A stretch of 64,000 bases of DNA from Candidatus Paceibacter sp. GTDB lineage: Bacteria > Patescibacteriota > Minisyncoccia > Phycocordibacterales > GCA-2747955. The notes below the pieces were generated by a model that was given only the letters and a program-made list of their open reading frames with translations, had not been told where the DNA came from and made no database searches. Shown here one piece after another: positions 5,611 to 32,236 of this stretch (positions are counted from its first letter, which is position 1; the number at the start of each line of letters is the position of its first letter). The stretch covers positions 1,446 through 65,445 of the forward strand of contig JABACC010000007.1 of assembly GCA_014237915.1 (NCBI GenBank), written 5' to 3'. A program made the translations under genes and the position numbers.

Positions 5611-8187
5611 ATGTTAAGAATAGTCAAGAAAATTTTTAATAAAAGAAATCTTTTAAATATTGGTATTTTTGTTTTATTTTTAATCTTCCCTGTTTTTACA
5701 TTAAGCGCAGATTGGGTGATGAGTATTTTAATTGAACTTTTAGGTTTAATTAACTCTCTAACTAATTTAATACTATCTGCTTCTGCTTATATTTTTGACA
5801 ATCTCCTCGCTCTCTCTATAGGATCAACACTTTTTAGTGATGGTGCAGTACTTGAGGCTTGGGGAGAGGTTAGGGATTTGGCAAACATTCTTTTTATAGT
5901 TGGAATTATTCTGATTTCTTTTTCTTACTTAACAAATCATCAAATAGGAGTAAAAAAAAATATGATGGCTCATCTTATAATACTTGCCCTTGTTATAAAT
6001 TTCTCTTTTTTTATTTCAAGAGTAATTATTGATGCTGGAAATATTACAGCCCTTGTAATGTATGATGGAATTTCAGCCCCAATAAGCCAAACCCCTGAAG
6101 ATAGATATAGATTTTTTTCTGATGTTATAAGCGGAAACATTTTAGTAGATAAAGGTTCTAACTGTAGTAAAACAGAAAAAAACCCTAAAAGTTGTGCTAA
6201 GAGTATTTCTGGGGCATTTGTTAATTATTCTGGCTTAAATAAATTTTCTTCTGCAGCAGGGTTTTCTGCAGGGGAAGAGGGTGTCAAAATAGAGACAAGA
6301 CTTTTTCTTGTTTTGATGTCTAGCATTATCTTATCTATTATTTTAGCTAAATCTTTATTTATGGCAGGATTTATGTTTTTAAACAGGCTAATTTGGCTTG
6401 TAATTTATACAATAATTTCTCCTTTAGCTTTTATGTCTTGGCTGCTTCCGAGTATGGGTGGATATTTATCAAGCGGATCATTATCAAAATGGTTTCAAGG
6501 TTTTATTAATAAATCTTTTTGTATAACAATATACCTTTTATTATTGTGGATAGTTTTTAAAATCTTAGCATCTTTTAACAAAGCTCTTGCTAGCGCCAAT
6601 AACAACAAAGGTTTTTTGGAATTATTAATAGGATTTATTTTGCAGGTTATTGTCACATTTGTTCTTTTTGAGATTGTTAATAGGTATGGTTCTAAATTTT
6701 GCGAAGATGGAGAATCTACCTTTGGAAAAATTATAGGAGGAGTTACTAGTGTGGCAACCTCAGCACTACCAGTAGCAGGAGGAGCTGCAAGAATAGCTTC
6801 AGGAGCCTTAGGAAGGGGGCTTGCTGGAAAAGCTGCTGGAAGATTGGCTTCAAGCAATAACAGAGCTGCTAGATTTTTAGGTGAAAACGCTCTTTTGGGA
6901 AGTGATAAATTAAAAAATGTAAAAATAGCTGGAGCTTCTTATAATGACAAAATTACTGACGAGAAAAAAAGAGATGCAAAAATTGAAGAAATACTTTCTA
7001 AAGGAACAGGTGGTGATAAAAATGTTTTCAACAGAAGACTTGCAACCGGTGGAGGAATCGAAAAGTTTGCTTCAAATAGAGAAGGGGTAAAACTTCAAGA
7101 AATAAAAGAAGAAAAAACAAGAGAAGGTTTTGATAATCTTCAAAGTAGTAAAGATTTAGACAACAAGAAAAAAGATCAAAAGACTTTAAATACAAATATT
7201 TTAGGAATAGATGGAGATTTAAAATTATTTTCTGATTTAAGAGAAGCTGAGTCAGAAGTACAGACACAGAGAAATTTAGCTGGAGCAGACGCAACTATTA
7301 AGGGAACATCTGGTTATGAAAATGTTCAAAAAGCTGAAAATAAAAAAACAGATCTTGAGGATAAGATGACCAATCTAGGTATTGAAGAGGCAGATCTTGA
7401 AACTAAGAAAACAGAGCTTGAGAAGAAAAAATCATATATTGAGAAAGAAATTTCAAATCTGGAAAACATAAACACAGAAGAAAAAGAACAAACGAGAGAA
7501 AAAATAGAGGAAGAAGCTAAAGTATCAACAATAGAAGAAGCGGACGCAGAAGATCTTAAAGATGGAACAATCTTAGATGTTCCAAAAGATAACCCACTTA
7601 GCTTCCTTAGAGACAGGGCTGAAAGAGAAAGACTAAGAGACCTTAATAAGGAAAAAGAAAAAGGTGCTGATTTTCTTTTAGACACAGAATCAAGAAAAGG
7701 AGGAAGATATTTAGATAAGTTTAAAGATAGAATTTTAAATTCTGGAGAAGCAGGAATAGAAGGAGCCTTAAAATCTGCTTTAAATGATACAACCAAAGAA
7801 ATTGAAGATTTAACTTATATTTCAAGAGGAGAATCAGACCAAACTCAAAAAATTCTTCGAAGCATTTCTGATAAATTATCAAAAAGCCAAACAGAAGCTT
7901 TTGAAAATGTATCTAATTTTAGAGAAAATATTGAAGACAGAAAAGCTCAAAAAACACAAGCTTTAAGTGATGGAAAAATAGATAAGGCTAAAGATTTAGA
8001 TAAAGAAATTAAGGTTTATGAAAACAGTATTGACGACATTTGGAAAGATTCTGGGTTAGATAAAATTGTTTCCGAAACAATTAACCAAGCAAAAGATAAT
8101 TTAAAAGAATCATTTGAAAAAGCAAAAAAAGATATTAAAAATTCTGCAGATAAAAAAGCAAAAAAAGAAAAAGAAGCAAAAGATTAA
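5611..8187 (+). CDS. Polytopic membrane protein with a long C-terminal charged coiled-coil region; VirB6/TrbL-like candidate
   Basis: 858 aa. Signal/anchor then about 6 TM helices in the first roughly 350 aa. Gly/Ala-rich linker (GGAARIASGALGRGLAGKAAGRLAS). Roughly 450-aa K/E/D-rich coiled-coil tail. Architecture resembles TrbL/VirB6 proteins with hydrophilic C-terminal extensions. Confidence 0.4.
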   Translation: MLRIVKKIFNKRNLLNIGIFVLFLIFPVFTLSADWVMSILIELLGLINSLTNLILSASAYIFDNLLALSIGSTLFSDGAVLEAWGEVRDLANILFIVGIILISFSYLTNHQIGVKKNMMAHLIILALVINFSFFISRVIIDAGNITALVMYDGISAPISQTPEDRYRFFSDVISGNILVDKGSNCSKTEKNPKSCAKSISGAFVNYSGLNKFSSAAGFSAGEEGVKIETRLFLVLMSSIILSIILAKSLFMAGFMFLNRLIWLVIYTIISPLAFMSWLLPSMGGYLSSGSLSKWFQGFINKSFCITIYLLLLWIVFKILASFNKALASANNNKGFLELLIGFILQVIVTFVLFEIVNRYGSKFCEDGESTFGKIIGGVTSVATSALPVAGGAARIASGALGRGLAGKAAGRLASSNNRAARFLGENALLGSDKLKNVKIAGASYNDKITDEKKRDAKIEEILSKGTGGDKNVFNRRLATGGGIEKFASNREGVKLQEIKEEKTREGFDNLQSSKDLDNKKKDQKTLNTNILGIDGDLKLFSDLREAESEVQTQRNLAGADATIKGTSGYENVQKAENKKTDLEDKMTNLGIEEADLETKKTELEKKKSYIEKEISNLENINTEEKEQTREKIEEEAKVSTIEEADAEDLKDGTILDVPKDNPLSFLRDRAERERLRDLNKEKEKGADFLLDTESRKGGRYLDKFKDRILNSGEAGIEGALKSALNDTTKEIEDLTYISRGESDQTQKILRSISDKLSKSQTEAFENVSNFRENIEDRKAQKTQALSDGKIDKAKDLDKEIKVYENSIDDIWKDSGLDKIVSETINQAKDNLKESFEKAKKDIKNSADKKAKKEKEAKD

Positions 8188-8288: not shown

Positions 8289-9821
8289 ATGAGCTTTTCA
8301 AAAATTTATTCAACAGGTTTTTCTTCTCTAAAATCTTTTATTATTGAAATTGAAACAGATATTTCAAAAAAAGGTTTACCTTCTTTTAAAATTGTTGGCC
8401 TTGCCGACAAAGCTGTGGAAGAGTCAAGAGAAAGAGTTTTAACCGCGTTAAAAAATATCGGGTATCCAGAATTTAAAAGATGGAAAATTGTAACCTCCTT
8501 TTCTCCGGCCGATTTGAAAAAAGAAGGCCCTATTTTTGATTTAGGGATAGCAGTTTCTCTTTTAATGTCTGGAGAAGAAATAGACTTTTTAAATGAAGGA
8601 AAAATTTTCTTAGGCGAACTTTCTCTTGACGGAAGGGTAAAAAAAATCAAAGGTGTTTTGCCGATGATACGAGAAGCTAAAAAAAGAAATTTTACATCTA
8701 TTTATTTGCCAGAAAAAAATGCTCTTGAAGCTTCTTATGTTGAAGGAGTTAAAATTTTTCCTGTAAAAAATCTTAAAGAGCTTTTAGAACATTTAAATCA
8801 AGAAAAAAAAGAAAAAAAAGATATCAAAAAAATTATTTTTCCTTATAAAAAAAATGAAAATGAAAAAGAAGAAGAGAAAAGTTTTTCTTCCGAAGTTGAT
8901 TTTGAAGATATTAAGGGAAATGAATTTTCGAAAAGGGCAATTTTAATTGCAGCTTCGGGCGGACACAATCTTTCAATGTATGGAAGAGCGGGGGTGGGAA
9001 AAACAATGATGGCAAGAGCAATGTGTGGAATTTTACCAGAGCTTTCAAATGAAGAAGCTTTGGAGGTTTCTGAAATTTATTCTGTTTCTGGTCTTTTGGA
9101 GAAAAATATTATTAAAACTCCTCCTTTTTTTGCCCCGCACCATACTTCTTCTTATGTTTCGATTATTGGCGGCGGGGCTGACTTAAAACCCGGAGCAGTG
9201 ACACTTGCCCACAGAGGAATTTTGTTTATGGATGAGTTTCCAGAATTTGATAGAAGAGTTTTAGAGTCACTCAGAGAGCCTTTGGAAGACGGTTTTGTAA
9301 ATATTTCAAGAGCAAAAGGAAGTGTTTGTTTTCCAGCAAATTTTATTTTAGTAACTGCCTTTAATCCGCCAAGTGAAGTTTCAAGAGGGCAATATATAAA
9401 ACCATCAGAAATTGCAAAATTTCAGAAAAAAATTTCTGGCCCAATAATGGACAGAATTGATCTTTGGTGTGAGGTGGAAAAAGTTTCAGAGGAAAAACTT
9501 AGAGAAAACAAAAAAGGAGAAAACTCAAAAAATATAAAAGAAAAAGTAAAAAAAGCTAGAAAAATTCAAGAAAAAAGATTTGGAAAAACTGGGAAAACAA
9601 ACGCAAGCGCTAAACCAAAAGAAATTCAAGAAAATTTTTTTATAACAGAAAAATCCTACGAGCTTTTGGATGAGGCTTCAAAAAAAATGGATTTTTCATC
9701 AAGGGTTTATCACAAAATATTAAAAATAGCACGAACTTTGGCAGATCTTGAAGAGAAAAAAAACGTTGAAGAAAAACATATTTTAGAAGCTTTACAGTTT
9801 AGACCAAAAGAAATAATTTAA
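8289..9821 (+). CDS. comM: Mg-chelatase-like AAA+ ATPase, YifB/ComM family
   Basis: N-terminal Lon-protease-like domain (FKIVGLADKAVEESRERV). Walker A GRAGVGKTMMARA, Walker B ILFMDEFPEF. C-terminal Mg-chelatase subunit ChlI-type helical domain. Confidence 0.85.
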   Translation: MSFSKIYSTGFSSLKSFIIEIETDISKKGLPSFKIVGLADKAVEESRERVLTALKNIGYPEFKRWKIVTSFSPADLKKEGPIFDLGIAVSLLMSGEEIDFLNEGKIFLGELSLDGRVKKIKGVLPMIREAKKRNFTSIYLPEKNALEASYVEGVKIFPVKNLKELLEHLNQEKKEKKDIKKIIFPYKKNENEKEEEKSFSSEVDFEDIKGNEFSKRAILIAASGGHNLSMYGRAGVGKTMMARAMCGILPELSNEEALEVSEIYSVSGLLEKNIIKTPPFFAPHHTSSYVSIIGGGADLKPGAVTLAHRGILFMDEFPEFDRRVLESLREPLEDGFVNISRAKGSVCFPANFILVTAFNPPSEVSRGQYIKPSEIAKFQKKISGPIMDRIDLWCEVEKVSEEKLRENKKGENSKNIKEKVKKARKIQEKRFGKTGKTNASAKPKEIQENFFITEKSYELLDEASKKMDFSSRVYHKILKIARTLADLEEKKNVEEKHILEALQFRPKEII

Positions 9822-9980: not shown

Positions 9981-10024
9981 TAGCCCCTCTACTGAATTAT
10001 GAGTTTGGTGGAGGGGTTTTTATT
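9981..10024 (+). terminator. GC-rich hairpin + T-run (terminator-like) in the comM/ATPase intergenic region
   Basis: cccctctactgaattatgagtttggtggaggggtttttatttt. The GC-rich stem is unusual against the AT-rich background. Confidence 0.4.
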
Positions 10025-10173
10025 TTAATTTAAAAATATTTTTGATTTTTAAATTTTTAGTACAAAATAGCTGTGAGCAGAACTTACTTGTTTTGTTTTG
10101 CTCGGCGAGATGGTTTGAGATAAGATACTCACTATACCCCCCAATCAGCATCTTGAGCTGTCTCGTCACTACC

Positions 10174-10200
10174 CTCTATTTAAACAATAGGGGTTTTTTA
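10174..10200 (+). terminator. Second GC-rich hairpin + T-run closing a GC-richer untranslated segment
   Basis: ccctctatttaaacaatagggg followed by ttttttatttt. Its stem sequence is related to the 9981-10024 hairpin. Confidence 0.4.
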
Positions 10201-10240
10201 TTTTAAAAAATTTTTCTTTATTTTTTGCTATAATTATTTT

Positions 10241-13200
10241 ATGGAAAAAGAATTTTTTGGTGAGAAAATAATAAAAACCCCCGAGCAAGATAAAGAATTT
10301 TTTAATACTAATTTAAATTTAAACTCTCAAGAAAAATATAATTCTTCTTTTGGAAACTTAAACGAAAAAAAAGCTGAAGCTGTTGCTCGCGATGTTTTGG
10401 AAAAATATCCAAAAGAGGCTATAAGTTTAGCTTCTCCTGAATATTTAAATAAAAAAAATAGTGCAGAAGCCATCGTTTTAAAACTTTCTCCAGATGAAGA
10501 TGATAAAAAAATGGAAGAATTTCTATCTTTAATTAATAAGGTTGGAATTTTAAACACAATTAATGCAATTGAAAAAACAGAATCTTTCCACATTAAAGAT
10601 GATTTTCACAGATTTTTAGTTCAGTATTTAAAATCTGGATATCAACCAAAAAAATTAAAAGAAAAAGAGCCGTTTTTTATTTCTTTAAAAAGAACTTTAT
10701 TTAAAATTCAAATCCCAAATTCTGCAGAAGAGGAAGATAAAAATAAAAATTTAAAAGAATTACTTTCTTCAATGGAACAATTTTTTTCTGGAATGTTTGC
10801 TGTTTCTTCTGCTGAGGAAGAAAATTATTTTTCTTTAGAAATCGCACTGGCGCAAAACTCAGACGAAGTTGATTTTTACTGTGCCATTCCAGACGGAAAA
10901 GAAAATATTTTTAAAAATCAGCTTTTAGCAGTTTTTCCAAAAGCCAAAATTTTAGAAGCCAGTGATGACTACAATATTTTCAATAAAAAAAAACTTGTAG
11001 CAGGGTCTTTTGCAAAATTAAAAAAAAATGATTTTTTTCCTCTAACAACTTATAAAAATTTAGACTATGATCCTTTAAATTTAATCATTCAAGCTTTTTC
11101 TAATTTAAAAAAAGAGGAAGGCGCTGCCATTCAGATTAATTTAAAAACTCCGAAAAAACCTTTTTCAGAAAAAGTTAGAAAAGCTATAAAACAAGTAGAC
11201 GAAGGAAAAGATGTAAACGAAATAGTCTCTAAAAAAACTTCTTTTTTAGTAGATTTAAATAATAAAATTTACAATACTTTTTTAGCCTCAAATAAAAATG
11301 AAGAAAAATCAGGCTCAAGTGAAGAAAAAAATTTTTTCTTAGAGCAATTAAAAGAAAAAAATTCTTCTTCTGTTTTTGAAGCCAATATAAATATTGTCTC
11401 GGCTGGAGAAACAGAGCGGGGAGCTTTGCAAATTCTTTCTGCCATTGAAGCTGCTTTTATGCAGTTTGAAAATCCTGCTGGGAACAGTCTTTTTTTTGAA
11501 AAAGTTGATGGAAAAAAATTACAAAAATTAATTAAAAATTTTACTTATAGAATTTTTGATAAAAAAAATATTTTAAATTTAAATATTTCTGAACTTTCAT
11601 CTTTTTTTCATTTTCCTAAAAAAACTTTGGAAGCAGGAGAAACCCTGTCTTCAGGAGCCAGTGTTTCTTCTGGAGTAGACTTAAAATTAAAGAAAATTTC
11701 AGAAGAAGCTTTGGAAGATTTTCAAGGCTCAAGTTTTTCTGCTCCAGAAAAAAAAGTAGAAAATGAAAAAGTAGAAGCAAAAAATTTTCCTTCGGAAAAT
11801 TTTTCATCTCAAAAAGACAATAATTTAAAAAATATTTCTGAAGATAATTTTCAAGAAAAAGAAAATGAACTTTCTTATAGTTTGGGGAAGGTTGATGATT
11901 TTGAAGAAAAAATTTCAAAAAAAAGTTTTGAGGAAGAGAAAAAAAGGAATGATAATTATGAAAAATTTCAAGAAAAAAAACCAGAAGAAAAAATAAACTT
12001 TGAGAGCGAAAAAATTGAAAAACCTGAAGAGGAATTTTTCCCACAAAAAAAATCAACAGGAAAAATTTTACTTGGAATAAACGAGCACCAAGGAGAAGAA
12101 ACAAAAATTTTTATGAATGAAATCGATAGAATGAGACACCTTTATGTTATTGGGCAAACAGGAACAGGAAAAACAACTCTTTTAAAAAATGCCATAATTC
12201 AAGATATTGAAAATGGAGAAGGGGTTTGCTTTATTGATCCTCACGGCTCAGATATTGAAGATATTTTGAAAAATATTCCGCCAGAACGAGCAAAAGATGT
12301 TGTTTATTTTGATCCATCTGATATGAAAAAAGTTGTTGGTTTAAATATGCTTGAATATGACAAAAATTTTCCCGAGCAAAAAACTTTTGTTGTTGACGAA
12401 ATGCTCTCTATTTTTAATAAACTTTTCGATATGAAAGCAACAGGAGGCCCAATGTTTGAACAATATTTTAGAAACGCTGTAATGCTCACCATTGAAGATC
12501 CAGAATCAGGCTCAACCCTTTTAGATGTTTCAAGGGTTTTGTCTGACTCTGAATTTAGAGAAATGAAATTATCAAAATCTAAAAATTTAATTACAAACCA
12601 ATTTTGGCAAAAAATTGCCCAACAGGCGCAAGGAGAGGCAAGCCTTGAAAATATTGTTCCCTACATAACTTCTAAATTTGATAATTTTTTATCAAATGAC
12701 ATTATGAGACCAATAATTGCTCAGCAAAAATCATCTTTAAATTTTAGAAAAATAATGGACGAGAAAAAAATTCTTCTTGTAAATTTATCAAAAGGAAGAT
12801 TGGGCGAGCTAAACGCTCATCTTTTAGGGCTTATTATTGTTGGAAAAATTTTAATGGCTGCTTTATCTAGGGTTGATTCTGATATAAAAAATCTCCCTCC
12901 TTTTTATCTTTATATAGACGAGTTTCAAAATATTACAACTGATTCAATTTCTCAAATTTTGTCTGAGGCAAGAAAATACAAACTTTCTTTAAATATTGCT
13001 CACCAATATATTTCTCAAATTGATGAAGATATAAAAAATGCTGTTTTTGGAAATGTGGGATCTTTGGCTGTTTTTCGTGTTGGCTCTGAGGATGCAGAAT
13101 TTTTGGAAAAACAATTTTTACCAACATTTTCTAGTAAAGATATTATTGGGCTTAAAAATCACAATGCTTATATAAAATTACTTGTTGGGGGAGAGCCAGT

Positions 13201-13348
13201 TAAACCTTTTAATATAAAAACTCTGGCACCAGAAGAAGGGTCAGAGCTTAATTTAATTAGAGCAAAAGAAATTTCTTCAGAAAAATATGGTAGAGAAAAA
13301 GCTCTCGTTGATAGAGAAATTGAAGAAAAATTTAGACAATTGATTTAA
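10241..13348 (+). CDS. Conjugation/T4SS-type P-loop ATPase (VirB4/TrbE- or VirD4/TraG-family) with a roughly 600-aa N-terminal non-ATPase region
   Basis: Walker A YVIGQTGTGKTT closely followed by CFIDPHGSD (the IDP(K/H)GE motif of the HerA/VirB4/TraG clade). Walker B FYLYIDEF, then EARKYKLSLNIAHQ and VFRVGSEDAEFL, reminiscent of TraG/TraD C-terminal motifs. No searches run. Confidence 0.55.
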   Translation: MEKEFFGEKIIKTPEQDKEFFNTNLNLNSQEKYNSSFGNLNEKKAEAVARDVLEKYPKEAISLASPEYLNKKNSAEAIVLKLSPDEDDKKMEEFLSLINKVGILNTINAIEKTESFHIKDDFHRFLVQYLKSGYQPKKLKEKEPFFISLKRTLFKIQIPNSAEEEDKNKNLKELLSSMEQFFSGMFAVSSAEEENYFSLEIALAQNSDEVDFYCAIPDGKENIFKNQLLAVFPKAKILEASDDYNIFNKKKLVAGSFAKLKKNDFFPLTTYKNLDYDPLNLIIQAFSNLKKEEGAAIQINLKTPKKPFSEKVRKAIKQVDEGKDVNEIVSKKTSFLVDLNNKIYNTFLASNKNEEKSGSSEEKNFFLEQLKEKNSSSVFEANINIVSAGETERGALQILSAIEAAFMQFENPAGNSLFFEKVDGKKLQKLIKNFTYRIFDKKNILNLNISELSSFFHFPKKTLEAGETLSSGASVSSGVDLKLKKISEEALEDFQGSSFSAPEKKVENEKVEAKNFPSENFSSQKDNNLKNISEDNFQEKENELSYSLGKVDDFEEKISKKSFEEEKKRNDNYEKFQEKKPEEKINFESEKIEKPEEEFFPQKKSTGKILLGINEHQGEETKIFMNEIDRMRHLYVIGQTGTGKTTLLKNAIIQDIENGEGVCFIDPHGSDIEDILKNIPPERAKDVVYFDPSDMKKVVGLNMLEYDKNFPEQKTFVVDEMLSIFNKLFDMKATGGPMFEQYFRNAVMLTIEDPESGSTLLDVSRVLSDSEFREMKLSKSKNLITNQFWQKIAQQAQGEASLENIVPYITSKFDNFLSNDIMRPIIAQQKSSLNFRKIMDEKKILLVNLSKGRLGELNAHLLGLIIVGKILMAALSRVDSDIKNLPPFYLYIDEFQNITTDSISQILSEARKYKLSLNIAHQYISQIDEDIKNAVFGNVGSLAVFRVGSEDAEFLEKQFLPTFSSKDIIGLKNHNAYIKLLVGGEPVKPFNIKTLAPEEGSELNLIRAKEISSEKYGREKALVDREIEEKFRQLI

Positions 13349-20454: not shown

Positions 20455-21828
20455 TTGATAATGCATATTTTTTCTAATCTTAAAAAAATTTTAAAAATAT
20501 TTTTTCTTTCAGTTTTTTTTGTATTCAACTTTGTTTTTTCTGAAATTCCAGCAGAAGAAGTTTTTCAGTATTTTTTAGAAAACCCAGAAAAAATATTTGA
20601 AACTGAAGTTCAGGAAGTTTTTTATTCAGCTCAAAATTCTCGGTATGAAATTTCATCTTTAAGTAAAGACAACTCAAATATTTCTTATATTTTTTTTGCT
20701 GAAGAGCAAAGCGGAGAAATTTTTTTTCTTGATGGAGATGGAGAAAAAAAATACACAGGCTACACCGTCACAATTTTACAAGAAAATTCAGATAATGAAG
20801 ACGAAGATATTGAAGATAAAATTTTGGATAACTTAACAGATTTTGAAGGGGTTTACAACGATCAACTTGGGGGAAATAACAAAAGAAATAGTTTTGCTGA
20901 AAACGAAGATGAGGTTGAAAAAACTTTAACACCCTCAGAGCAATTAGAAGAAGCAAATAAAAGTTTGGAAGATACAGATGAAGATATTAAAGATTTAGCA
21001 ATTGAAACGTTAGAAAATTATAGTTCGCTAAAAGAATTTGTACAGTTTAAAGAAACTTTAGATGAGGACGAAGATGGACTTTCTCCTAACTCGGGTACTG
21101 ATCTTTACAGAGACATACTTGAAGATTATTTAGCAAGCGAAGACGGAAAAGAAAAAATCCAAGATCTTTTTGAAAAAAGTTCTGTAGAAGATATTGAAGA
21201 ATTTGTCGATAAGTTTTTTATAGAAAATCCAAATTTAACTAATACTGAAAAAGAAAATTGGATATTTTATCTAGAAGAGTTAAAAGAAGTTGATGAGCAA
21301 AGAGAAATAAGAAAAGCTGAAAATTTCAGCGCTCCAGAAATTAATGAAGATGGGCTAAGTAATTTTGTAGAAGCCGGCCTAAAGGCTGTTTTGAGTGATT
21401 CTCAAGAAGGACGAGGGTCAGAAGAAGGAGATGGCCAAGATCCTAACTGCTATAAATATGACGAAAAAGGGAATCCAGTAAATGATACCAGCAGGGGATA
21501 TGAAAGAGGGCTTGTGAAATATGATCCAGTATGTGATAAAAATACTAAAGGATTTGATGGTTTAATAATGACAATAAATGCGGTCACTAGTTTTGTTACA
21601 GGTATTGCTATTTTTTTATTTGTCGTTACCTTAATTTGGGCAGGAGGAATTTTAATGTTTCAAGGATCAAGTACCGGAGGAAGAGATAAAGCAAAAAAAA
21701 TGATAAACGGGGCAGTTATTGGAATATTTTTCATATTAGGAGCAACATTTATTGTAAGCTCGATTTTTTCTGTTTTCGGATTAGAAGATGAAGATTTAAT
21801 CGAAGGGAGTGTTGAAATATCTCAATAG
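20455..21828 (+). CDS. Secreted acidic protein with C-terminal VirB2/TrbC-like two-helix pilin module (long-form paralog)
   Basis: 457 aa. Signal peptide, roughly 330-aa D/E-rich region, then a C-terminal module (AVTSFVTGIAIFLFVVTLIWAGGILMFQGSSTGGRDKAKKMINGAVIGIFFILGATFIVSSIFSVFG) matching the downstream small paralogs. Confidence 0.4.
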   Translation: MIMHIFSNLKKILKIFFLSVFFVFNFVFSEIPAEEVFQYFLENPEKIFETEVQEVFYSAQNSRYEISSLSKDNSNISYIFFAEEQSGEIFFLDGDGEKKYTGYTVTILQENSDNEDEDIEDKILDNLTDFEGVYNDQLGGNNKRNSFAENEDEVEKTLTPSEQLEEANKSLEDTDEDIKDLAIETLENYSSLKEFVQFKETLDEDEDGLSPNSGTDLYRDILEDYLASEDGKEKIQDLFEKSSVEDIEEFVDKFFIENPNLTNTEKENWIFYLEELKEVDEQREIRKAENFSAPEINEDGLSNFVEAGLKAVLSDSQEGRGSEEGDGQDPNCYKYDEKGNPVNDTSRGYERGLVKYDPVCDKNTKGFDGLIMTINAVTSFVTGIAIFLFVVTLIWAGGILMFQGSSTGGRDKAKKMINGAVIGIFFILGATFIVSSIFSVFGLEDEDLIEGSVEISQ

Positions 21829-21873
21829 ATAAATTTGTTTTTTCTTTTTTTTAGCTTATAATATATTAATATC

Positions 21874-22314
21874 ATGAATCAAATTTTTTCAAAAAAATAT
21901 TTATTTTTTCTAATAATCCCTTTTTTATTTTCTATTTATTTTGTTACTTTTTCTTATAGTGCAGAATCTTGCGCTGGAGATTTTGAGTGTTTACAAAACC
22001 CATTAAAAGATAGCAATATTGGCTCAATTTCAGATTTAATTTCCACAATTTTAAATTTAATAATGATTTTAGCCGTTCCTTTTATAGTTATCGCTATAGT
22101 TTACTCAGGTTTTCTATTTATTCAAGCTCAAGGAAATCCAGAAAAAATAAAAACAGCTAGAAGTTTTTTACTTTGGTCCCTTGTTGGAGCTGGTATTGTT
22201 CTGGGTGCAAATGTTATTTATACCGTCATGGAAGATACATTTAAAAAATTTATTGCAGAAGAGGGTATAGAAAAAATAGAAGAAAAAAATTTAATAGAAG
22301 ATTATTATGTTTAA
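21874..22314 (+). CDS. VirB2/TrbC-like pilin candidate (paralog 2)
   Basis: 146 aa. Signal peptide, hydrophobic helix (LIMILAVPFIVIAIVYSGFLFI), short basic loop (QAQGNPEKIKTARS), second helix (FLLWSLVGAGIVLGANVIY). Confidence 0.45.
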   Translation: MNQIFSKKYLFFLIIPFLFSIYFVTFSYSAESCAGDFECLQNPLKDSNIGSISDLISTILNLIMILAVPFIVIAIVYSGFLFIQAQGNPEKIKTARSFLLWSLVGAGIVLGANVIYTVMEDTFKKFIAEEGIEKIEEKNLIEDYYV

Positions 22315-22663
22315 AAAAAAACAATTTAAAATATTTTTTTTGTTTTTATTAATTCCCTTTTTTTCTTTTTCAGCCAGCTTTTCAGAATTAGTAGACACAA
22401 TTTTTGTCGGAAGTTTAATTAAAGGTTTTGTTGGTTTAATTTTTTCTCTTTCTTTTCTATTTTTTTTATGGAAAGCCTTGCAGGTTATTTTAAACTTTGC
22501 TTCTTCAAAAAGAGGAGAATATTTAAAAGGGCTTTTTTTCAGTATTTTTCTTTTATTTGTAATGTTTTCAATTTGGTCTTTGGTAAACATTGTTTTAAGC
22601 ACTAATTTAAAAACAGGAACAGGATCTTCCGAAGATGTTATTTTTGATAAAATTAAATTTTAA
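22307..22663 (+). CDS. VirB2/TrbC-like pilin candidate (paralog 3)
   Basis: 118 aa. Same signal, helix, K/R loop, helix layout (…FLFFLWKALQVILNFASSKRGEYLKGLFFSIFLLFVMFSIWSLVN). Confidence 0.45.
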   Translation: MFKKKQFKIFFLFLLIPFFSFSASFSELVDTIFVGSLIKGFVGLIFSLSFLFFLWKALQVILNFASSKRGEYLKGLFFSIFLLFVMFSIWSLVNIVLSTNLKTGTGSSEDVIFDKIKF

Positions 22664-22771
22664 ATAAATTTTAAATAAATTTTTAACCCTTCAAATTCTT
22701 TAATCTTTAATTTTGACTTTATTTATTTTTTTTGATATAAAGGTATTATTAATAAGTAAATTTATTTTAAT

Positions 22772-23116
22772 ATGAAAAAAATTTTATTAACTTTGTCAGG
22801 GATTTCAGTTTTACCTGTTTTAGCTTTAGCTGATAATGGAATTGAAGAACTTATAAACACATTAGGAGAATTAATTCAAAGCGCTTCTACTGTTATTTTT
22901 GCTCTTGCAGCTCTTGTTTTCTTTTGGTCTTTAATTACCTACTTATGGGGAGCTGAAGAAAAAAAAGAAGGTGCTACAAAAGGAATTACTTTAAGTATCG
23001 TAGTTTTGTTTATAATGTTTTCAATTTGGGGAATTATTCAAATCCTTCAAGAAACAGTAGATGTTGATGGAGACGACTCAATAGATGTTCCAGAGTTTCC
23101 TGCTTTAAAATCTTAA
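22772..23116 (+). CDS. VirB2/TrbC-like pilin candidate (paralog 4)
   Basis: 114 aa. Cleavable signal (…LPVLALA). Helix 1 STVIFALAALVFFWSLITYLWGA, loop EEKKEGATKG, helix 2 ITLSIVVLFIMFSIWGIIQIL. Confidence 0.5.
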   Translation: MKKILLTLSGISVLPVLALADNGIEELINTLGELIQSASTVIFALAALVFFWSLITYLWGAEEKKEGATKGITLSIVVLFIMFSIWGIIQILQETVDVDGDDSIDVPEFPALKS

Positions 23117-23139
23117 AATAAAATAGTTTTAATTTAACT

Positions 23140-23421
23140 ATGGATAAAGTTGCCAAAATAATTCAAATTTTTGTTACAGAAATTTTAAATCCAATTATTG
23201 TAATTTTGATTTCTCTTTCTGTTGTTTATTTTTTTTGGGGAATGATGGTTTTTATTTTAAATTCTGACGATGAAACAAAAAGAACAGAAGCTAAATCTCA
23301 CATTTTTTGGAGCATTATAGGATTTGTTATTATTTTTGGAGTTTGGGGGATATTAAATTTTGTTGTTTTCAGTATTTATGATTTAACAAACCCAACCTCT
23401 GTTTCAGCAGCAGAAGCTTAA
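23140..23421 (+). CDS. VirB2/TrbC-like pilin candidate (paralog 5)
   Basis: 93 aa. Helix 1 …VVYFFWGMMVFILNS, loop DDETKRTEAKS, helix 2 HIFWSIIGFVIIFGVWGILNFVVF. A terminator hairpin (aaaaagcccgaagggctttttt) follows at about 23445-23470. Confidence 0.45.
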   Translation: MDKVAKIIQIFVTEILNPIIVILISLSVVYFFWGMMVFILNSDDETKRTEAKSHIFWSIIGFVIIFGVWGILNFVVFSIYDLTNPTSVSAAEA

Positions 23422-26250: not shown

Positions 26251-29200
26251 ATGGCAAATCGATCTTTTAAAATTTTTTTAACTTTAGTATTTTTTTTAAC
26301 ACCTTTTATTTCTTTTGGGGCTGATATTTATCTTCAAAAAGATAATGCTTTATGGTCTGATCCCACAGCTTGGAGTGGAGGAGTTTTACCAACAAGTTCC
26401 GATAATGTTTATTTAAAAAAAGAGGACGGAACGGAGTTTGATAAAATTACAATTGATTCTGTCGCAACCTATTTATCTATGGATGCTTCAAACATTAAAG
26501 AAATTGATGTAAAGTATAATTTATATAGATCAATAGAAGCGCCAAATTCCATTGTAAATTTTTACAATGGAAGCAACCAAATAGCATCATCTAATTTTAA
26601 AATAAAAGCCAAAGAAATATATTTTAAAGAAGGCACCGTAGAAATTATTCGCTATCCTTATTTTGAGGCAGATAAAATAGTAGTAGAGGAGAATGCTAGT
26701 ATTTATATTTCTATAACCGCGTTAGGTTATTATAATTCTATAGAAATAAAAGGAGACTTAATTCATAATGGAAAATTTTTTGGAGTAAGGGATTTTGATA
26801 TAAATCTCGATGGAAGTTTTATTAATAATGGAGAGATGGAAGATGTTCATCACTTTTATATTTCAAAAAATATTGAAAACAATTCAGTTTTACCAGATGA
26901 TTTTTATTTTCGGTATAAAACAAGCACATCAAAAAATCACCCAGTTGAAATAAAAGGTTCTGAAAAAGTTTCCTTAATTGTGACAAATGATTCAAACAAT
27001 ATTTTTTATTTTCATGATTCCGTTGATCTTAAAAATTTTTATTCTTATTATGATTCATCAGTTATAGACACAGAAAATAGTTTAAGTATTTATCTTGAAG
27101 ATGGAAAAAGTTTTAAAGCAGAAAAAGTTTATGGTCATAACGTATATTTTTTAAACAATAATAATTTTCATTTAGAATCATACGGCTCTATTACTTTTTC
27201 TCCGTATCGACTTCCAAATATTTATGCAGAAAAATCAACTGTGATTATTGAGGGAGATGGTATTTTTAAGGAAATAAAAGCAAAAGAAATATATTTTTTG
27301 GAAGGGATTCATGAGTATCCCTATAAAGGAAATACAATCACAGCGGATAATATAGTTTTAGAAGAGGGCTCATATATTCGTAATAATCAAGACCCGTACC
27401 AAAGTGGGGTAGAACCACTGACCATAAATGGAGATGTGAAAAACATGGGTTCCTTAGGAGATGATAACTTTATTATAAATGGAAACCTAGAAAATAATGG
27501 GAATGTAACAAACTTCAAGACAATTAAGGTGTATGGAGATGTATATAATAATGGTACATTTCAAGAAAACTCAAGAGGCGATTCTCCAACAATTTTTGCA
27601 TATGGAGATTTCTATAATTTTGGAACATACACATCACGAAACTTTTATTCCTATGGAAATATAGATTCAAGTGATATATTAGAAACAAGTATTAATCTAT
27701 ATGAAAACGTTGATGGAATCCATAAAAAGCTATCTTTTTCTGGAGATTATTTAAATTCAAATCTTATTATTAGGGAAAATATAACCTTAGATAAATCAGT
27801 AAGAGAAATTCCTTTTGATATTGAAGATGCAGAAATTATTGTAAATTCTAACTTCCTAGAGGTTCCAACTTTAAAGAATTCTAAACTTGAAGGAGATTTT
27901 GTTTTAGAAGTAAGAAATATTATAGACACTGAAGCTTTAAACGTAAAAGTTAGTGTAAGTAACGATATCGGAGGAAATATTTCGGTGAAAAATATAGTGC
28001 TCACTTCAGGAGATTTAGAAAATGGAGTAAACAGAGTAAGTGATGACGTGGTAAGGTTTGAAACGCTCGAGATAGAAGAGAATGTCTCTCTAGAGGTTTA
28101 CAAAAGGGCACCAAAACTTTATGGAAAAATTCTAAACAAGGGAACAATTTATGGCCTCGACAACTATCAAGAATTGTTATTCATTTTTGAGGATTTCAAC
28201 AATCAAGGAATAATTGAAAATGAAATATCTGTGTATTTTTATTTTAACAAAGAAATTAACCAAACCAATCAATATTTCATAAAAGAAGGAACTTCTTTTT
28301 CAGAACCATCAGTTGATGAAATAAAAACAGGATATTCAGCTAGGGTTGAGGACTATCTAAACCAAACAGACAAAGAATTTTCAATTTGGTATAAACTTCC
28401 AGAAGAATCCGAATGGAAAGTAAATTATTTTAATGTTGATTTTGAAATTCCAGAAATTGTTGTTCCTCCTCCAGAACCTGAAACTTTAGAATTTTCTTTT
28501 TCTAACATCGAAGATCATTTAAAAAACGAAGAAGTAGAAATTACACTAAGCGCTGCAAGGAATTTGCAAGATAGGGATTCTAAAGTAAGAAGAAAAGAAA
28601 TGTATTTTTATCTTTCTACAAACAAAGGAGATATTGTTTATCCTTCTGTTGTAACTTTTGCAGAAGATGGAGATTATTATGAAAAAGAAAAAACTTTTTC
28701 TATGAAAATAGATGAAGCAGAAAGTGATATTGAAATATATATTAAAGATAGTGAGGGAAATCTTTTAGGAACTTCAAAACCTTTTTCTGTAGTAGAGTCG
28801 GGAAAAGCTTATTTTAAATTTAGAGAGGATCATTATCATAGGTATGATTTGGACATAAAATTAGGAACAAAAGACTACTCTTTTGAATCCACAAAATCTA
28901 TAAATTTAATGGTTTTACCTTGCGATGAAAATCTCTCTGTTATACCAAAAGGTAATATTTTTATTCCAAGCGACACAGGCCTTATACATCAAGAATTTTT
29001 TTATCTACCAATACAAGTTAACATATCTTGCGACACAACAGATACGATAGAAATAGCAAAATCTATTCCCTACGAAAATTGGGTTTGTGAAGACTCAGAC
29101 AAAACCCCAGTTTTACTTTTACCGGGGATTATGGGCTCTGATACAAAATTTAACCTTTCTGTTTACCCTCAAATACCAAAAGATTCCCCTGCTTGGGATT

Positions 29201-30201
29201 CTGAAAAACTTGTTTTACATGATCCAGGACCAGCTAATTTTTCAGTAGGTTGGGAAAATCTTAAAGATGAGCTTAGGAGCGAAGGTTACAGAGGAGGTTG
29301 CAATATTATAGATGTTCCCTACGATTGGAGGTTAGAAATTCCAGAAATTAGAGATTTATACCTAATCCCTTGGATCGAAGAAGCAAAAAGACTAACAGGT
29401 AAAGATGAAGTTGATATTGTAGCTCATTCAATGGGCGGGCTTGTGGCCAGATCTTTTATTCAATCTTCAAAACATTTAAACGAAGTGAGAAATTTTGTAA
29501 TGGTAGGAACTCCAAACTCTGGCTCAGCCTCAACTTATCCTATCTGGGAAGGAGGGGATCCAATTTTAGTAGATAAAAATACTCAAGATTTATCAACTAT
29601 TGGAGGATATGTATCAAAGTATTTTTACACCAACACTATAAATAAAAATTATAAAAAAGTTATCGAAGATAAAGATTTATGCATTTGGGAATCAGGATTT
29701 TTACCTGCTCCAATTTATTGCAACAAAGAAAAAGTTTATGATTTTTTACATACATACTCTCCTTCTGTTGGAAACTTAATGCCAACATACCCCGGAGCTT
29801 TAAAAGATCATCTTAGCGAAGCAGATTTAAATATATCAGCTGAGCCAAATAATTTTCTTCTTGCTTTAAATAGTGGAGGAGATTACGGCAGAGATACATA
29901 TATTCACCCAGACGATATTAATAATAAAATATCAGGAGAGAGTATTCTTTTTTATGGAGATAATTTTGATACAATAGAAAATATAAAGGTAGATCAAAGC
30001 TTTTCTCATCAATTTTTGTATCAAGATGGAAAACCTTCTGGCCTAGATTTTATAATTAAAAATCAAGGAGACAAGACAGTTCCTAAAGTCTCAATACCGA
30101 TAGGTAATATTAATTTATCTTCTGATGTTTCAGATCAGGAACACGGGCGACTTATAAATGATTTAAAAGAAGAAATTGTTGAGTTTATTAATAATAATTA
30201 A
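26251..30201 (+). CDS. Giant secreted surface protein with C-terminal LCAT-like alpha/beta-hydrolase (phospholipase/acyltransferase) domain
   Basis: 1316 aa. N-terminal signal peptide (FLTPFISFGADIY). Roughly 900 aa of Asn/Gly/Tyr-rich repetitive beta-type sequence. C-terminal domain with PYDWR (the LCAT/PDAT-family YDWR motif), nucleophile elbow VAHSMGGLVAR (GxSxG), and downstream Asp/His candidates. Confidence 0.6.
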   Translation: MANRSFKIFLTLVFFLTPFISFGADIYLQKDNALWSDPTAWSGGVLPTSSDNVYLKKEDGTEFDKITIDSVATYLSMDASNIKEIDVKYNLYRSIEAPNSIVNFYNGSNQIASSNFKIKAKEIYFKEGTVEIIRYPYFEADKIVVEENASIYISITALGYYNSIEIKGDLIHNGKFFGVRDFDINLDGSFINNGEMEDVHHFYISKNIENNSVLPDDFYFRYKTSTSKNHPVEIKGSEKVSLIVTNDSNNIFYFHDSVDLKNFYSYYDSSVIDTENSLSIYLEDGKSFKAEKVYGHNVYFLNNNNFHLESYGSITFSPYRLPNIYAEKSTVIIEGDGIFKEIKAKEIYFLEGIHEYPYKGNTITADNIVLEEGSYIRNNQDPYQSGVEPLTINGDVKNMGSLGDDNFIINGNLENNGNVTNFKTIKVYGDVYNNGTFQENSRGDSPTIFAYGDFYNFGTYTSRNFYSYGNIDSSDILETSINLYENVDGIHKKLSFSGDYLNSNLIIRENITLDKSVREIPFDIEDAEIIVNSNFLEVPTLKNSKLEGDFVLEVRNIIDTEALNVKVSVSNDIGGNISVKNIVLTSGDLENGVNRVSDDVVRFETLEIEENVSLEVYKRAPKLYGKILNKGTIYGLDNYQELLFIFEDFNNQGIIENEISVYFYFNKEINQTNQYFIKEGTSFSEPSVDEIKTGYSARVEDYLNQTDKEFSIWYKLPEESEWKVNYFNVDFEIPEIVVPPPEPETLEFSFSNIEDHLKNEEVEITLSAARNLQDRDSKVRRKEMYFYLSTNKGDIVYPSVVTFAEDGDYYEKEKTFSMKIDEAESDIEIYIKDSEGNLLGTSKPFSVVESGKAYFKFREDHYHRYDLDIKLGTKDYSFESTKSINLMVLPCDENLSVIPKGNIFIPSDTGLIHQEFFYLPIQVNISCDTTDTIEIAKSIPYENWVCEDSDKTPVLLLPGIMGSDTKFNLSVYPQIPKDSPAWDSEKLVLHDPGPANFSVGWENLKDELRSEGYRGGCNIIDVPYDWRLEIPEIRDLYLIPWIEEAKRLTGKDEVDIVAHSMGGLVARSFIQSSKHLNEVRNFVMVGTPNSGSASTYPIWEGGDPILVDKNTQDLSTIGGYVSKYFYTNTINKNYKKVIEDKDLCIWESGFLPAPIYCNKEKVYDFLHTYSPSVGNLMPTYPGALKDHLSEADLNISAEPNNFLLALNSGGDYGRDTYIHPDDINNKISGESILFYGDNFDTIENIKVDQSFSHQFLYQDGKPSGLDFIIKNQGDKTVPKVSIPIGNINLSSDVSDQEHGRLINDLKEEIVEFINNN

Positions 30202-30203
30202 AT
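30141..30203 (+). repeat. Junction repeat copy 1 (3' end of giant-protein CDS + RBS/start of downstream gene)
   Basis: …aatgatttaaaagaagaaattgttgagtttattaataataattaaatATG…, repeated nearly identically at 30541 and 30921. Confidence 0.8.
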
Positions 30204-30539
30204 ATGAATATTATAGAAAAAATAAATATAAAATTAATATTGTTAACAATATATATATATATATATATAAATTTAGGCGGAGCTTATTTGGTATTTCAAT
30301 TTTCTAGAAGTTCTATGTGGGGTCAAGATTTTGACAATATTTTAAGTCATTTATTAGAAGTTCTAAATACTCTTTTTAACTTAATGTATTCTAACTTTTT
30401 AATATTTTTATTATTATTTACTTTTTCTTTTTTTCTTTCCAAGTTTTTCTTAAAAAAAGAAAATAAATTATATTATATTTTATTCCACATTTTAGCCTTA
30501 CCTGCATCTTTTTTTGGGTATTTTATTTTAGTTGTATAG
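30204..30539 (+). CDS. Small polytopic membrane protein (cassette paralog A); immunity-protein-like position
   Basis: 111 aa. Conserved N-terminus MNIIEKINIKLILLTIYIYIYI and C-terminus YILFHILALPASFFGYFILVV shared with the next ORF; middle diverged. Contains (AT)10 at 30249-30269. Confidence 0.4.
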   Translation: MNIIEKINIKLILLTIYIYIYINLGGAYLVFQFSRSSMWGQDFDNILSHLLEVLNTLFNLMYSNFLIFLLLFTFSFFLSKFFLKKENKLYYILFHILALPASFFGYFILVV

Positions 30540-30540
30540 G

Positions 30541-30600
30541 TTAGTAAATGACTTAAAAGAAGAAATTGTTGAGTTTATTAATAATAATTAAATATGAATA
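30541..30600 (+). repeat. Junction repeat copy 2
   Basis: gttagtaaatgacttaaaagaagaaattgttgagtttattaataataattaaatatgaatattatag: duplicates the last roughly 50 nt of the giant CDS plus the start of the small gene. Confidence 0.8.
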
Positions 30601-30920
30601 TTATAGAAAAAATAAATATAAAATTAATATTATTAACAATATATATATATATATATATTAGTCTGGGGGGAGTTTTTGCAACAATGATATTTTCAGATTT
30701 TCGTATAGATGAATTAGTTACCGCTTTTTTTTATTCTTTTATTCCTTTTTTTATTTATATTTGGAGTAAACACTTTGTTATTTCTTTGATTTCGGTGATC
30801 ATCTCTTTTTCACTTGTTAAATTTAATATGATAAAAAAAATAAAAAAAATCTACATAATACTATTTCATATTTTAATTTTACCCCTTTCTTTTTTTGGGT
30901 ATTTTATTTTATTTGTATAG
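30594..30920 (+). CDS. Small polytopic membrane protein (cassette paralog B)
   Basis: 108 aa. Same conserved termini as paralog A with a different central segment. (AT)10 tract at 30639-30658. Confidence 0.4.
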   Translation: MNIIEKINIKLILLTIYIYIYISLGGVFATMIFSDFRIDELVTAFFYSFIPFFIYIWSKHFVISLISVIISFSLVKFNMIKKIKKIYIILFHILILPLSFFGYFILFV

Positions 30921-30980
30921 GTTAGTAAATGACTTAAAAGAAGAAATTGTTGAGTTTATAATTAATAATAATTAAATATG
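30921..30980 (+). repeat. Junction repeat copy 3 (with 5-nt insertion)
   Basis: gttagtaaatgacttaaaagaagaaattgttgagtttataattaataataattaaatATGaaaaatc… The ATG at 30976 opens a 21-codon frame that stops inside an (AT)6 tract, 1 nt out of frame with the 31010 ORF. Confidence 0.75.
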
Positions 30981-31009
30981 AAAAATCTAAAAGAATTTAT
31001 TAAAAAAGA

Positions 31010-31627
31010 TTGGTGGAGATTAATATTAATATATATATATTAATATTAGTAATTTTCCCTAATATTTTAATAGGATTATCATTTAGTATAACATATTTTG
31101 AATTTATTACATATTACCTTGAAGAAACAAAAACAATCTTTCTTACACTAGGTATAGCTTTTGGTTTTTTCTTATTTTTTCTATCAATATTTAAATTTAT
31201 TTTTGTAGAAAAATATTTTCTAGCATTTAACACATTTTTCGCAATCTCCCTGCCTACGATATACAGCGTTTTACGTATAGGAGAAGTATCAAGTCTTTTT
31301 TACGCAATACTTATGATGTTTATTTTTTTCGTAATTGTCCCTTTGGTATTTGAAAGTATATTTAAAGAAAAATATTTTTTATTTTTTAATGCGTTTATAC
31401 TCTTATTAGCAATTTTTATTTTTTCTTTTTTAAATTCGATAGTTTTATATTTTTTTTTAGCTCTTGCTGTATACATAATTTTACTTTTATTTTTTCTATC
31501 AATATTTAAATTTTCTCTTAATGAAAAAGTTAGAAATTACATAACAATATCTTTATTTTTTTTCTATATATTTTTCTTCGTAGCTCTATATTTTTATTTT
31601 TATAATATTTTTATACCCAGTCTTTAA
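31010..31627 (+). CDS. Polytopic membrane protein (cassette-associated); N-terminus possibly phase-variable via (AT)n
   Basis: 205 aa, roughly 6 TM helices. An internal near-repeat (FFLFFLSIFKFIFVEKYFL ... LLLFFLSIFKFSLNEK) suggests internal duplication. Confidence 0.35.
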   Translation: MVEININIYILILVIFPNILIGLSFSITYFEFITYYLEETKTIFLTLGIAFGFFLFFLSIFKFIFVEKYFLAFNTFFAISLPTIYSVLRIGEVSSLFYAILMMFIFFVIVPLVFESIFKEKYFLFFNAFILLLAIFIFSFLNSIVLYFFLALAVYIILLLFFLSIFKFSLNEKVRNYITISLFFFYIFFFVALYFYFYNIFIPSL

Positions 31628-31637
31628 TTTTTAAAAA

Positions 31638-32219: not shown

Positions 32220-32236
32220 TTAAATAATCAAAAAAT

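Follow-up and report, generated by a model that had tools for sequence, protein, structure and literature searches.

The gene analysed here lies at 10241..13348, on the forward strand, of a 64,000-nucleotide stretch of contig JABACC010000007.1 from Candidatus Paceibacter sp.; this whole stretch is called the window below. The gene is a complete coding sequence for a 1035-residue protein, in which a DUF8128 region is followed by an ATPase domain like that of type IV coupling proteins (T4CPs) and which has no transmembrane (TM) domain. As judged from predicted structures, the motor is coupling-protein-like and the overall architecture is VirB4-like. We propose, with moderate confidence, that the protein is a soluble two-domain motor of the VirB4/VirD4 superfamily that would work in the Patescibacteria type IV secretion system (T4SS) as its coupling or substrate-feeding ATPase, docking by its VirB4-like N-terminal domain (N-domain). 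DUF8128 takes the place of the N-terminal TM anchor that is usual in coupling proteins. The family itself is already catalogued; what is new here is a coupling-protein-like motor without a TM domain joined to an N-domain of predicted VirB4 type.

The gene and its motor domain

The reading frame starts with ATG and was taken from the list of open reading frames (ORFs) with its translation. It has 1035 codons and 545 homologues at E<=1e-3, and is therefore not a chance ORF; an identical protein is on record from a 66-kb metagenome scaffold. The 120 listed homologues have 886-1128 residues and, where the source is named, all belong to Patescibacteria/Parcubacteria. An earlier interpretation made from the letters alone (the sequence-only reading) had described a VirB4/VirD4-family ATPase with a Walker A, an IDPHG motif, a Walker B and TraG/TraD-like C-terminal motifs. 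All of these were located: Walker A GQTGTGKT at residues 638-645 (nt 12152-12175), FIDPHG at residues 664-669 (IDPHG at nt 12233-12247), Walker B FYLYIDEF at residues 888-895 (nt 12902-12925), AHQY at residues 920-923 and FGNVG at residues 936-940. The TraG-D_C match, at residues 887-953 (nt ~12899-13099), scores 26 bits against a Pfam gathering cut-off of 22. The sole hydrophobic stretch of the protein, residues 857-875, is within the ATPase fold.

The nucleotide-binding domain, of the T4CP (VirD4/TrwB) type, spans residues 604-1000 (12050..13240, forward strand) and was recognised by Pfam, NCBIfam, Foldseek and hhalign. T4CP Pfam families are present in all 36 family members compared, and TrwK and TrwB lead the Foldseek matches, so that the family assignment itself is upheld. 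TraG-D_C, TrwB_AAD_bind and DUF87 each match 36/36 members and T4SS-DNA_transf 11/36, while AAA_10, P-loop_TraG and CagE_TrbE_VirB fall outside the top 25 Pfam families matched by most of these members. In the short-form relatives described below, TrwB_AAD_bind and T4SS-DNA_transf exceed their gathering cut-offs over ~300 residues. The NCBIfam model SXT_TraD matched at 3e-16. With hhalign, the C-terminal domain (C-domain) gave a Prob of 92-94% with TrwB, 38% with TrsK, 7-14% with TrwK and 87% with TrsE, the last over the Walker A region only. In HMM searches of the PDB sequences TrwB alone was matched, weakly.

The full-length AlphaFold2 (AF2) model, with a mean confidence (pLDDT) of 75, aligns by Foldseek to TrwK over ~1000 columns at E 7e-10. 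TrwB (1e9r/1e9s/1gl7) follows at E 5e-9, with a target-normalised TM-score of 0.61-0.66 and an rmsd of ~5 Å over ~415 columns, and the alignment of the predicted structure runs over 412-426 columns, compared with ~420 residues in TrwB. After TrwK/VirB4 and TrwB/VirD4 come Cag-beta, DotL and lastly HerA; the crystal structure of a VirB4 C-domain, 4AG5, is outside the top 50 matches. Between Walker A and Walker B the model places eight helices at residues 712-826, in an insertion at ~12341-12745 (forward strand), and these predicted helices are the counterpart of the all-alpha domain in coupling proteins. The protein ends in two modeled helices (1002-1016 and 1020-1034, within residues 1001-1035, 13241..13345, forward strand), with K1009, S1012, G1017, R1020 and E1024 conserved.

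Identity as an FtsK or HerA protein was considered and rejected. Pfam, NCBIfam, hhalign and Foldseek all score T4SS ATPases higher; best matches to FtsK/SpoIIIE or HerA, which the sequence-only reading had named as the finding that would overturn it, did not appear. FtsK_SpoIIIE reaches a best E of 3e-4 among the 36 members, under its cut-off, and HerA structures match the C-domain with E 3e-7 to 1e-4 by Foldseek.

Fold of the N-terminal domain

The N-terminal ~600 residues had been described as rich in K, E and F, free of TM helices and without a recognisable domain. The composition was borne out (K 13.6%, E 10.9% and F 8.3% in residues 1-470; E 19%, K 18% and S 13% in residues 471-610), and a Kyte-Doolittle hydropathy scan of residues 1-600 found no TM-like segment. 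The last part of the description has to be given up. Residues 1-470 are DUF8128 (Pfam PF26449), folded and conserved, and residues ~462-603 are a disordered linker. The DUF8128 match is precomputed for the identical protein and for 120/120 listed homologues, and UniProt names one relative "DUF8128 domain-containing protein"; our Pfam scan of the window had no such match because PF26449 is newer than the Pfam release used. In the alignment of the 36 family members residues 1-470 are strongly conserved, with L80, L82, P84, D88, G102, D120, D121, H123, R124, M178, E179 and Q180 invariant, and likewise N245, D277, P278, G294, Q298, R437, E451 and H457. Our literature search found no paper that mentions DUF8128.

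The AF2 model of residues 1-472 has a pLDDT of 80.8 and a pTM of 0.74. When it was compared with the PDB by Foldseek, the top 10 matches were all R388 TrwK/VirB4, with E from 4e-6 to 3e-4 over ~410 columns, and the 11th reached only E 0.026, a drop of about a hundredfold. TrwB, HerA, FtsK and other P-loop proteins gave no match in this PDB search. Since no P-loop protein other than TrwK is among the matches, what the model resembles is the N-domain of TrwK, the part that is specific to VirB4. Among predicted viral structures (BFVD), Foldseek placed phage G gp156 first at 1.7e-16, with related phage proteins just behind; the VirB4-type phage G gp155 followed at E 1.9e-6 and a "Component of type IV transporter system" at 4.2e-5. 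We infer that the predicted DUF8128 fold resembles the N-terminal domain of VirB4 ATPases, as represented by one experimental and two predicted structures. A large soluble N-terminal domain had been considered atypical for VirB4. The opposite holds: in R388 TrwK the N-domain is large and soluble and comprises residues 15-400 (PMC9259494).

Homology of DUF8128 and VirB4 N-domains was also sought at the level of sequence and went undetected (hhalign Prob <1%; no Pfam match of the CagE_TrbE_VirB or PF27097 type). As these tests are negative, the claim of a VirB4-like N-domain stands on predicted structure.

Three parts can be distinguished ahead of the motor, all on the forward strand. The first 140 residues (10241..10660) are a helical extension, with six modeled helices at residues 14-131 and two invariant motifs, LSPDEDD (nt 10484-10504) and DDFHR (nt 10598-10612). 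It is confined to one of the two forms of the family, the long form of ~900-1130 residues; the short form, of ~790-860 residues, is without residues 1-140, and both the short forms and the phage homologues align only from query residue ~145-175 on. The DUF8128 core, residues ~145-460 (10673..11620), is modeled as two alpha/beta subdomains (residues ~150-455) with the fold like that of the VirB4 N-terminal domain, and would serve in docking and oligomerisation. The linker, residues 462-603 (11624..12049), is rich in E, K and S, has a pLDDT <50 over most of its length and contains two short predicted helices (481-496 and 554-576). It is a lineage-specific insertion, with 79-217 residues in seven close relatives and 12-18 in 28 of the 35 aligned homologues.

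A small ORF of 131-162 residues abuts or overlaps the 5' end of short-form genes (L084 9602-9997, L092 7574-7999, L093 7601-8008, L086 9479-9967). For two of them a weak alignment with long-form residues 88-135 was obtained, in which the pattern G102, D120, H123, L126 is shared (hhalign, best Prob 19%). Such sequence similarity hints at a gene fusion or fission between the small upstream ORF and the 140-residue extension of the long form.

The domain order raises an alternative, namely that the protein is a second, divergent VirB4, an assembly or pilus-biogenesis ATPase which, for example, extracts VirB2-like pilins from the membrane, and is not a coupling protein. We think this unlikely. The order of N-domain and then P-loop C-domain is that of VirB4, as is the alignment to TrwK along the full length, and the C-domain profile approaches TrsE, a VirB4 of the MPF-FATA class of systems; yet the same profile sets TrwB (92%) far ahead of TrwK (7%), and T4CPs lead the structural matches of the single domain, with 4AG5 ranked as given above. 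DUF87, present in all members, is also the annotation of TrsE of pSK41, but TraG-D_C and TrwB_AAD_bind are in all members too and the VirB4 families AAA_10, P-loop_TraG and CagE_TrbE_VirB are not among the top families. A pilin array 7 kb downstream of the gene in the window and, at another locus, a protein with a faint pilin match directly after the family gene would suit a pilus ATPase. Patescibacteria already possess a separate canonical VirB4, however, whose gene is reported near dnaA in Paceibacteria (PMC12102498).

Relatives, gene neighbourhoods and the proposed role

The family extends to bacteriophages. The target protein is matched by phrog_5156 at E 1.6e-87, and tblastn gave C-domain matches in 21 phage records, 19 of them from Bacillus phages, with a C-domain identity of 22-26%. 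The hhalign comparison with phage G gp156 gave a Prob of 98.2% (E 3e-14) for the N-domain and 99.8% for the C-domain; the match to a 720-residue protein of siphophage vB_BceS-M2 is weaker. In the jumbo Bacillus phage G (L089, 1196-5338), gp156, with its DUF8128-like region and T4CP-like ATPase, is directly downstream of gp155, a VirB4-type ATPase by Pfam (P-loop_TraG 57 bits, AAA_10 36 bits), and the two make up a VirB4/VirD4-like pair. In SPO1L1 (L091, 2759-8284), the gene for a 907-residue homologue overlaps the downstream Replic_Relax (PF13814) gene by 8 nt, and an Alp7A-like actin gene lies ~1 kb upstream with three small ORFs between. Together, the homologue, Replic_Relax and the actin gene look like a plasmid-like module in a SPO1-like phage. 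A motor paired with VirB4 and a motor paired with a relaxase-family gene are the classical pairings of a coupling protein. The vB_BceS-M2 homologue is found in a recombination/replication module with a Gam-like inhibitor, a single-strand annealing protein (SSAP) and replication protein O. A scan of IMG/VR confirmed no family member.

Among bacteria, an N-domain search of representative proteins returned 860 clusters at E<=1e-3, and relatives are encoded in at least 596 GTDB species genomes of Patescibacteria, or Candidate Phyla Radiation (CPR). The named members are Parcubacteria (Nomura-, Taylor-, Campbell-, Zambryski- and Wolfebacteria, Paceibacterota). For neighbourhood counts the ORFs of 82 loci were clustered. 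The recurrent neighbours are ndk (43 loci), directly downstream, map (36), adk (31) and secY (27); spc-operon ribosomal proteins are also encoded upstream and a metallo-beta-lactamase (MBL)-fold protein, rplT and infC downstream. The usual order is secY-adk-map, then the DUF8128 gene, then ndk. Short-form genes have the small ORF directly upstream, and a PMT glycosyltransferase, GtrA and dnaX in their context. Conserved synteny with the neighbours in the window (ComM, RuvC, PilB, the pilins and an 858-residue protein) was looked for in the 82 loci and not found; homologues of ComM, RuvC and PilB recur in fewer than 3 of them. The DUF8128 ATPase gene is chromosomal, occurs across Parcubacteria-type lineages and lies outside mobile elements.

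Three individual loci may be recorded here. In a Wolfebacteria genome (L084, 13268-22379) a short-form gene has, at a distance of ~1 kb, a comFC-like gene (Pribosyltran together with a zinc ribbon) and a type IV pilus cluster made up of pilM, a faint pilO match, pilB, pilT, pilC, a pilin gene and pilD; the target gene in the window likewise stands between comM and pilB. At L094 the protein with a faint T4SS_pilin match is encoded directly after the family gene. In one Parcubacteria genome (L002, 8571-9986) a diversity-generating retroelement (bAvd plus reverse transcriptase) is directly upstream of a family member.

The retroelement and the phage homologues would fit a defence-system or mobile-element ATPase, HerA-like or MADS-like, on an integrated element, and PADLOC does match mad8 to the C-domain (E 1e-14) and HerA weakly, with HerA defence complexes among the structural matches at E 1e-5 to 1e-4. 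The occurrence of the gene in 596 or more species genomes, with housekeeping neighbours that are conserved, makes this very improbable, as do the T4CP matches, which are stronger than those to HerA, and a window with neither a partner nuclease, Sir2 or methylase gene adjacent to the target nor a GC island.

How might a coupling ATPase of the kind we propose work? Like other members of the superfamily, it would form a hexameric ring and, as an ATPase, move DNA or protein substrates towards a channel in the membrane. The VirB4-like N-domain would dock the motor onto the VirB4/VirB3/TrsD platform of Patescibacteria and so replace the membrane anchor. The docking proposal is made because in R388 the central/outside VirB4 dimer interface is formed by the N-domains alone, VirB3 wraps the N-domain and the N-domain also holds the VirB8 tails (PMC9259494). 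The motor would then serve as the coupling ATPase of a relaxase-less, pilin-bearing Patescibacteria T4SS. We infer the T4SS link from the pairing with gp155 in phage G, the pairing with Replic_Relax in SPO1-like phage, the pilin array of the window and a protein in the window that is weakly VirB6/TrbL-like.

The published survey of Patescibacteria provides the setting. VirD4-type T4CP homologues were reported in 2,918 of 3,035 genomes, 5,713 proteins in all or about two per genome, of which 148 are near virB4, and exaptation was suggested by the authors (Quinonero-Coronel et al. 2025, PMC12102498). The main text of that paper has no discussion of the domain architecture of these homologues. 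The Patescibacteria T4SS derives from the monoderm mating pair formation (MPF) class MPF-FATA (PMC12102498). The essential T4SS cluster of S. epibionticum is described as having neither a coupling protein nor a relaxase that can be recognised (Wang et al. 2023, PMC10633639).

Several observations weigh against a coupling role in a T4SS docked in this way. The TM-scores of the N-domain model with VirB4 are modest (0.33-0.36, Foldseek). A DUF8128 profile of 146 sequences and an alignment of 32 TrwK-type N-domains gave an hhalign Prob <1%, and so did DUF8128 compared singly with TrsD and TrsE of pSK41 and with TrwK. For the motor, profiles separate T4CPs from MPF-FATA VirB4 proteins poorly (TrwB 94%, TrsE 87%). 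The gene is unlinked to T4SS genes in most genomes, having secY-adk-map upstream and ndk downstream instead, and no T4SS gene recurs beside family members in the 82 loci. VirB4 occurs in fewer Patescibacteria genomes (2,417) than T4CP (2,918), relaxases are rare, and in S. epibionticum the T4CP is non-essential and the T4SS essential (PMC12102498), though this T4CP may not be a DUF8128 protein. Because T4CPs are commoner than VirB4 and non-essential in S. epibionticum, the motor may work without a T4SS.

The corresponding alternative is a T4SS-independent DNA translocase, exapted for pumping or processing DNA in the cytoplasm: in the uptake of transforming DNA through ComEC, where it would stand in for the ComFA of Gram-positive bacteria, or in recombination or chromosome handling. 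Neither VirB4 nor a secretion channel would be needed. We retain it as a lesser but real possibility because of the housekeeping position of a near-universal gene, the wider spread of T4CPs than of VirB4, the finding that T4CP is dispensable for epibiotic growth (PMC12102498) and the recombination contexts. Such contexts include the window, where genes of recombination and competence surround the target (RuvC, 5101; ComM/YifB, 8289-9821; a weak RecO_N-like ORF, 14130; PilB, 16290), the Wolfebacteria relative near comFC and a full type IV pilus cluster, and, in phages, the recombination/replication module of vB_BceS-M2 and the Replic_Relax pairing of SPO1L1. These neighbours are, however, unconserved among the 82 loci, and besides the generic all-alpha domain no DNA-binding domain was identified. 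A VirB4-type N-domain is known solely as a T4SS docking module, and the homologue in phage G has a VirB4-type ATPase as its partner; both points speak against such a translocase.

A broader and rather doubtful extension is that the DUF8128 ATPases are a third, undescribed branch of VirB4/VirD4 proteins, with VirB4 architecture and a coupling-protein-like motor, present in Parcubacteria and Bacillus phages, that serves in CPR bacteria as a T4SS-independent housekeeping DNA motor, for example for uptake, recombination or segregation, these bacteria being obligate nucleotide scavengers. If the motor does work without a T4SS, a major bacterial radiation would have in it a housekeeping translocase, of DNA or protein, that is new. 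As a coupling ATPase its interest is different. The T4SS is essential in the sole genetically tractable, host-dependent lineage of Patescibacteria, yet its cluster is without a recognisable coupling protein (PMC10633639), and our proposal offers a concrete docking mechanism, either by contact of the N-domain with the VirB4 N-domain or by VirB3/TrsD binding. At least in the Parcubacteria representatives analysed, the membrane anchor is missing and the predicted N-domain is VirB4-like. It also ties Parcubacteria proteins to an uncharacterised, experimentally accessible Bacillus phage family and bears on the divergence of VirB4 and VirD4.

Surroundings of the gene and comparison with known systems

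The window has a GC content of ~28%, without a GC island, and its genes include chromosomal housekeeping genes of the kind usual in Patescibacteria/CPR. On the upstream side of the target are genes for PNPase, IF-2, RbfA, RuvC, an 858-residue membrane protein and YifB/ComM; downstream are an ion channel (opposite strand), the weak RecO_N-like ORF, YidC, PilB and a methyltransferase, and farther downstream a solute-binding protein, a T4SS_pilin array and GrpE-DnaK. Neither VirB4 nor a relaxase was found among the window ORFs scanned.

The sequence-only reading had combined the target with a pilin array and a VirB6-like protein at 5611-8187 into a divergent T4SS-like apparatus. The pilin array holds. 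Within 20455-23421 (forward strand) four ORFs match PF18895 T4SS_pilin and form a VirB2-like array (20455-21828, 21874-22314, 22772-23116 and 23140-23421); the first encodes 457 residues with the pilin domain C-terminal, and an ORF in the array at 22307-22663 has a TM pattern like the pilins and no Pfam match. T4SS pilin arrays have been described for Patescibacteria (PMC12102498). For the VirB6-like protein the outcome is mixed. The 858-residue polytopic protein (5611-8187, forward strand) has ~eight TM segments followed by ~500 hydrophilic residues, no Pfam match and 14 homologues in 5.8 billion proteins. One TM region gave a Prob of 46% with R388 VirB6 and 69% with the TrbL-family protein of pSK41, compared with 0.1% for an unrelated membrane control. 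Topology and this weak profile similarity are suggestive of an "extended VirB6". An HMM search of ~90 loci found no homologue of it near family members. A single co-located apparatus was not shown, because linkage of the target to its neighbours is unconserved across the 82 loci.

The spacer of 419 nt between comM/yifB and the target contains a candidate small RNA of ~130 nt (10055-10205, forward strand), with a long hairpin at ~10104-10167 and then a terminator-like hairpin with a T-run at 10173-10193; it folds at -43.4 kcal/mol, with a z of -5.2 relative to shuffled sequences. Transcription of comM probably stops at another terminator, of 17 bp, at 9982-10018. Of the known RNA families none reached the Rfam gathering score in the spacer, and no match at E<=1 covered the structured part. 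A perfect TATAAT at 10229-10234 precedes the ATG at 10241 by 6 bases, and a run of purines like a Shine-Dalgarno sequence is not seen. The start could be that of a leaderless mRNA, but at 28% GC chance is equally possible.

Farther downstream, the region 26251-32770 (forward strand) opens with a 1316-residue protein that has one N-terminal hydrophobic segment at residues 6-24, perhaps a signal or anchor, and, at residues 1001-1153, an alpha/beta-hydrolase domain like those of LCAT/lipases. Two small proteins with 3-4 TM segments and a pilin-like TM pattern (30204-30920), a 5-TM protein (31010-31627) and a second lipase-like ORF (32237-32770) follow in the same stretch, which could be a host-interaction module.

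The protein can now be compared with known systems. VirD4-type T4CPs, such as TrwB of R388 (1E9R/1E9S/1GL7), Cag-beta and DotL, have in common with it the Walker A, (V/I)DP(N/H)G, the all-alpha insertion, Walker B and the TraG-D_C region. Most T4CPs differ in having an N-terminal TM anchor, instead of which the target has the soluble DUF8128 region of ~470 residues, and the target gene is unlinked to a relaxase or a T4SS operon, a linkage that is seen in the phage homologues only. HerA and FtsK belong to the same P-loop superfamily, to which DUF87 in all members also points, but the target has no HAS-barrel N-domain, FtsK gamma domain or TM region and scores better with T4SS ATPases.

With VirB4 (TrwK 7O42/7O43/8RTD; phage G gp155) the target shares the arrangement of a P-loop C-domain behind an alpha/beta N-domain that is soluble. 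In contrast to VirB4, its N-domain has no detectable sequence or profile similarity, the families AAA_10, P-loop_TraG and CagE_TrbE_VirB are missing from the top matches, the gene is not beside virB3 or virB6/8, and there are an extra 140-residue helical extension and a long disordered linker. The phrog_5156/Bacillus phage proteins (gp156; those of JL/CP-51/SPO1-like phages, ~900 residues; that of vB_BceS-M2, 720 residues) have the same two-domain architecture but not the extension and the linker, and they are phage-encoded beside a VirB4-type ATPase or Replic_Relax.

A final comparison is with TraJ of pIP501, which is not known to have a large N-terminal domain. Coupling proteins free of a TM domain are a recognised class, of which TraJ, recruited by the membrane protein TraI, is an example, and the target resembles it as a soluble coupling-type motor that would reach membrane machinery via a partner (PMC7431656). 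In the target, unlike in TraJ, motor and putative docking module are parts of one polypeptide, and the module is predicted to be like the N-domain of VirB4.

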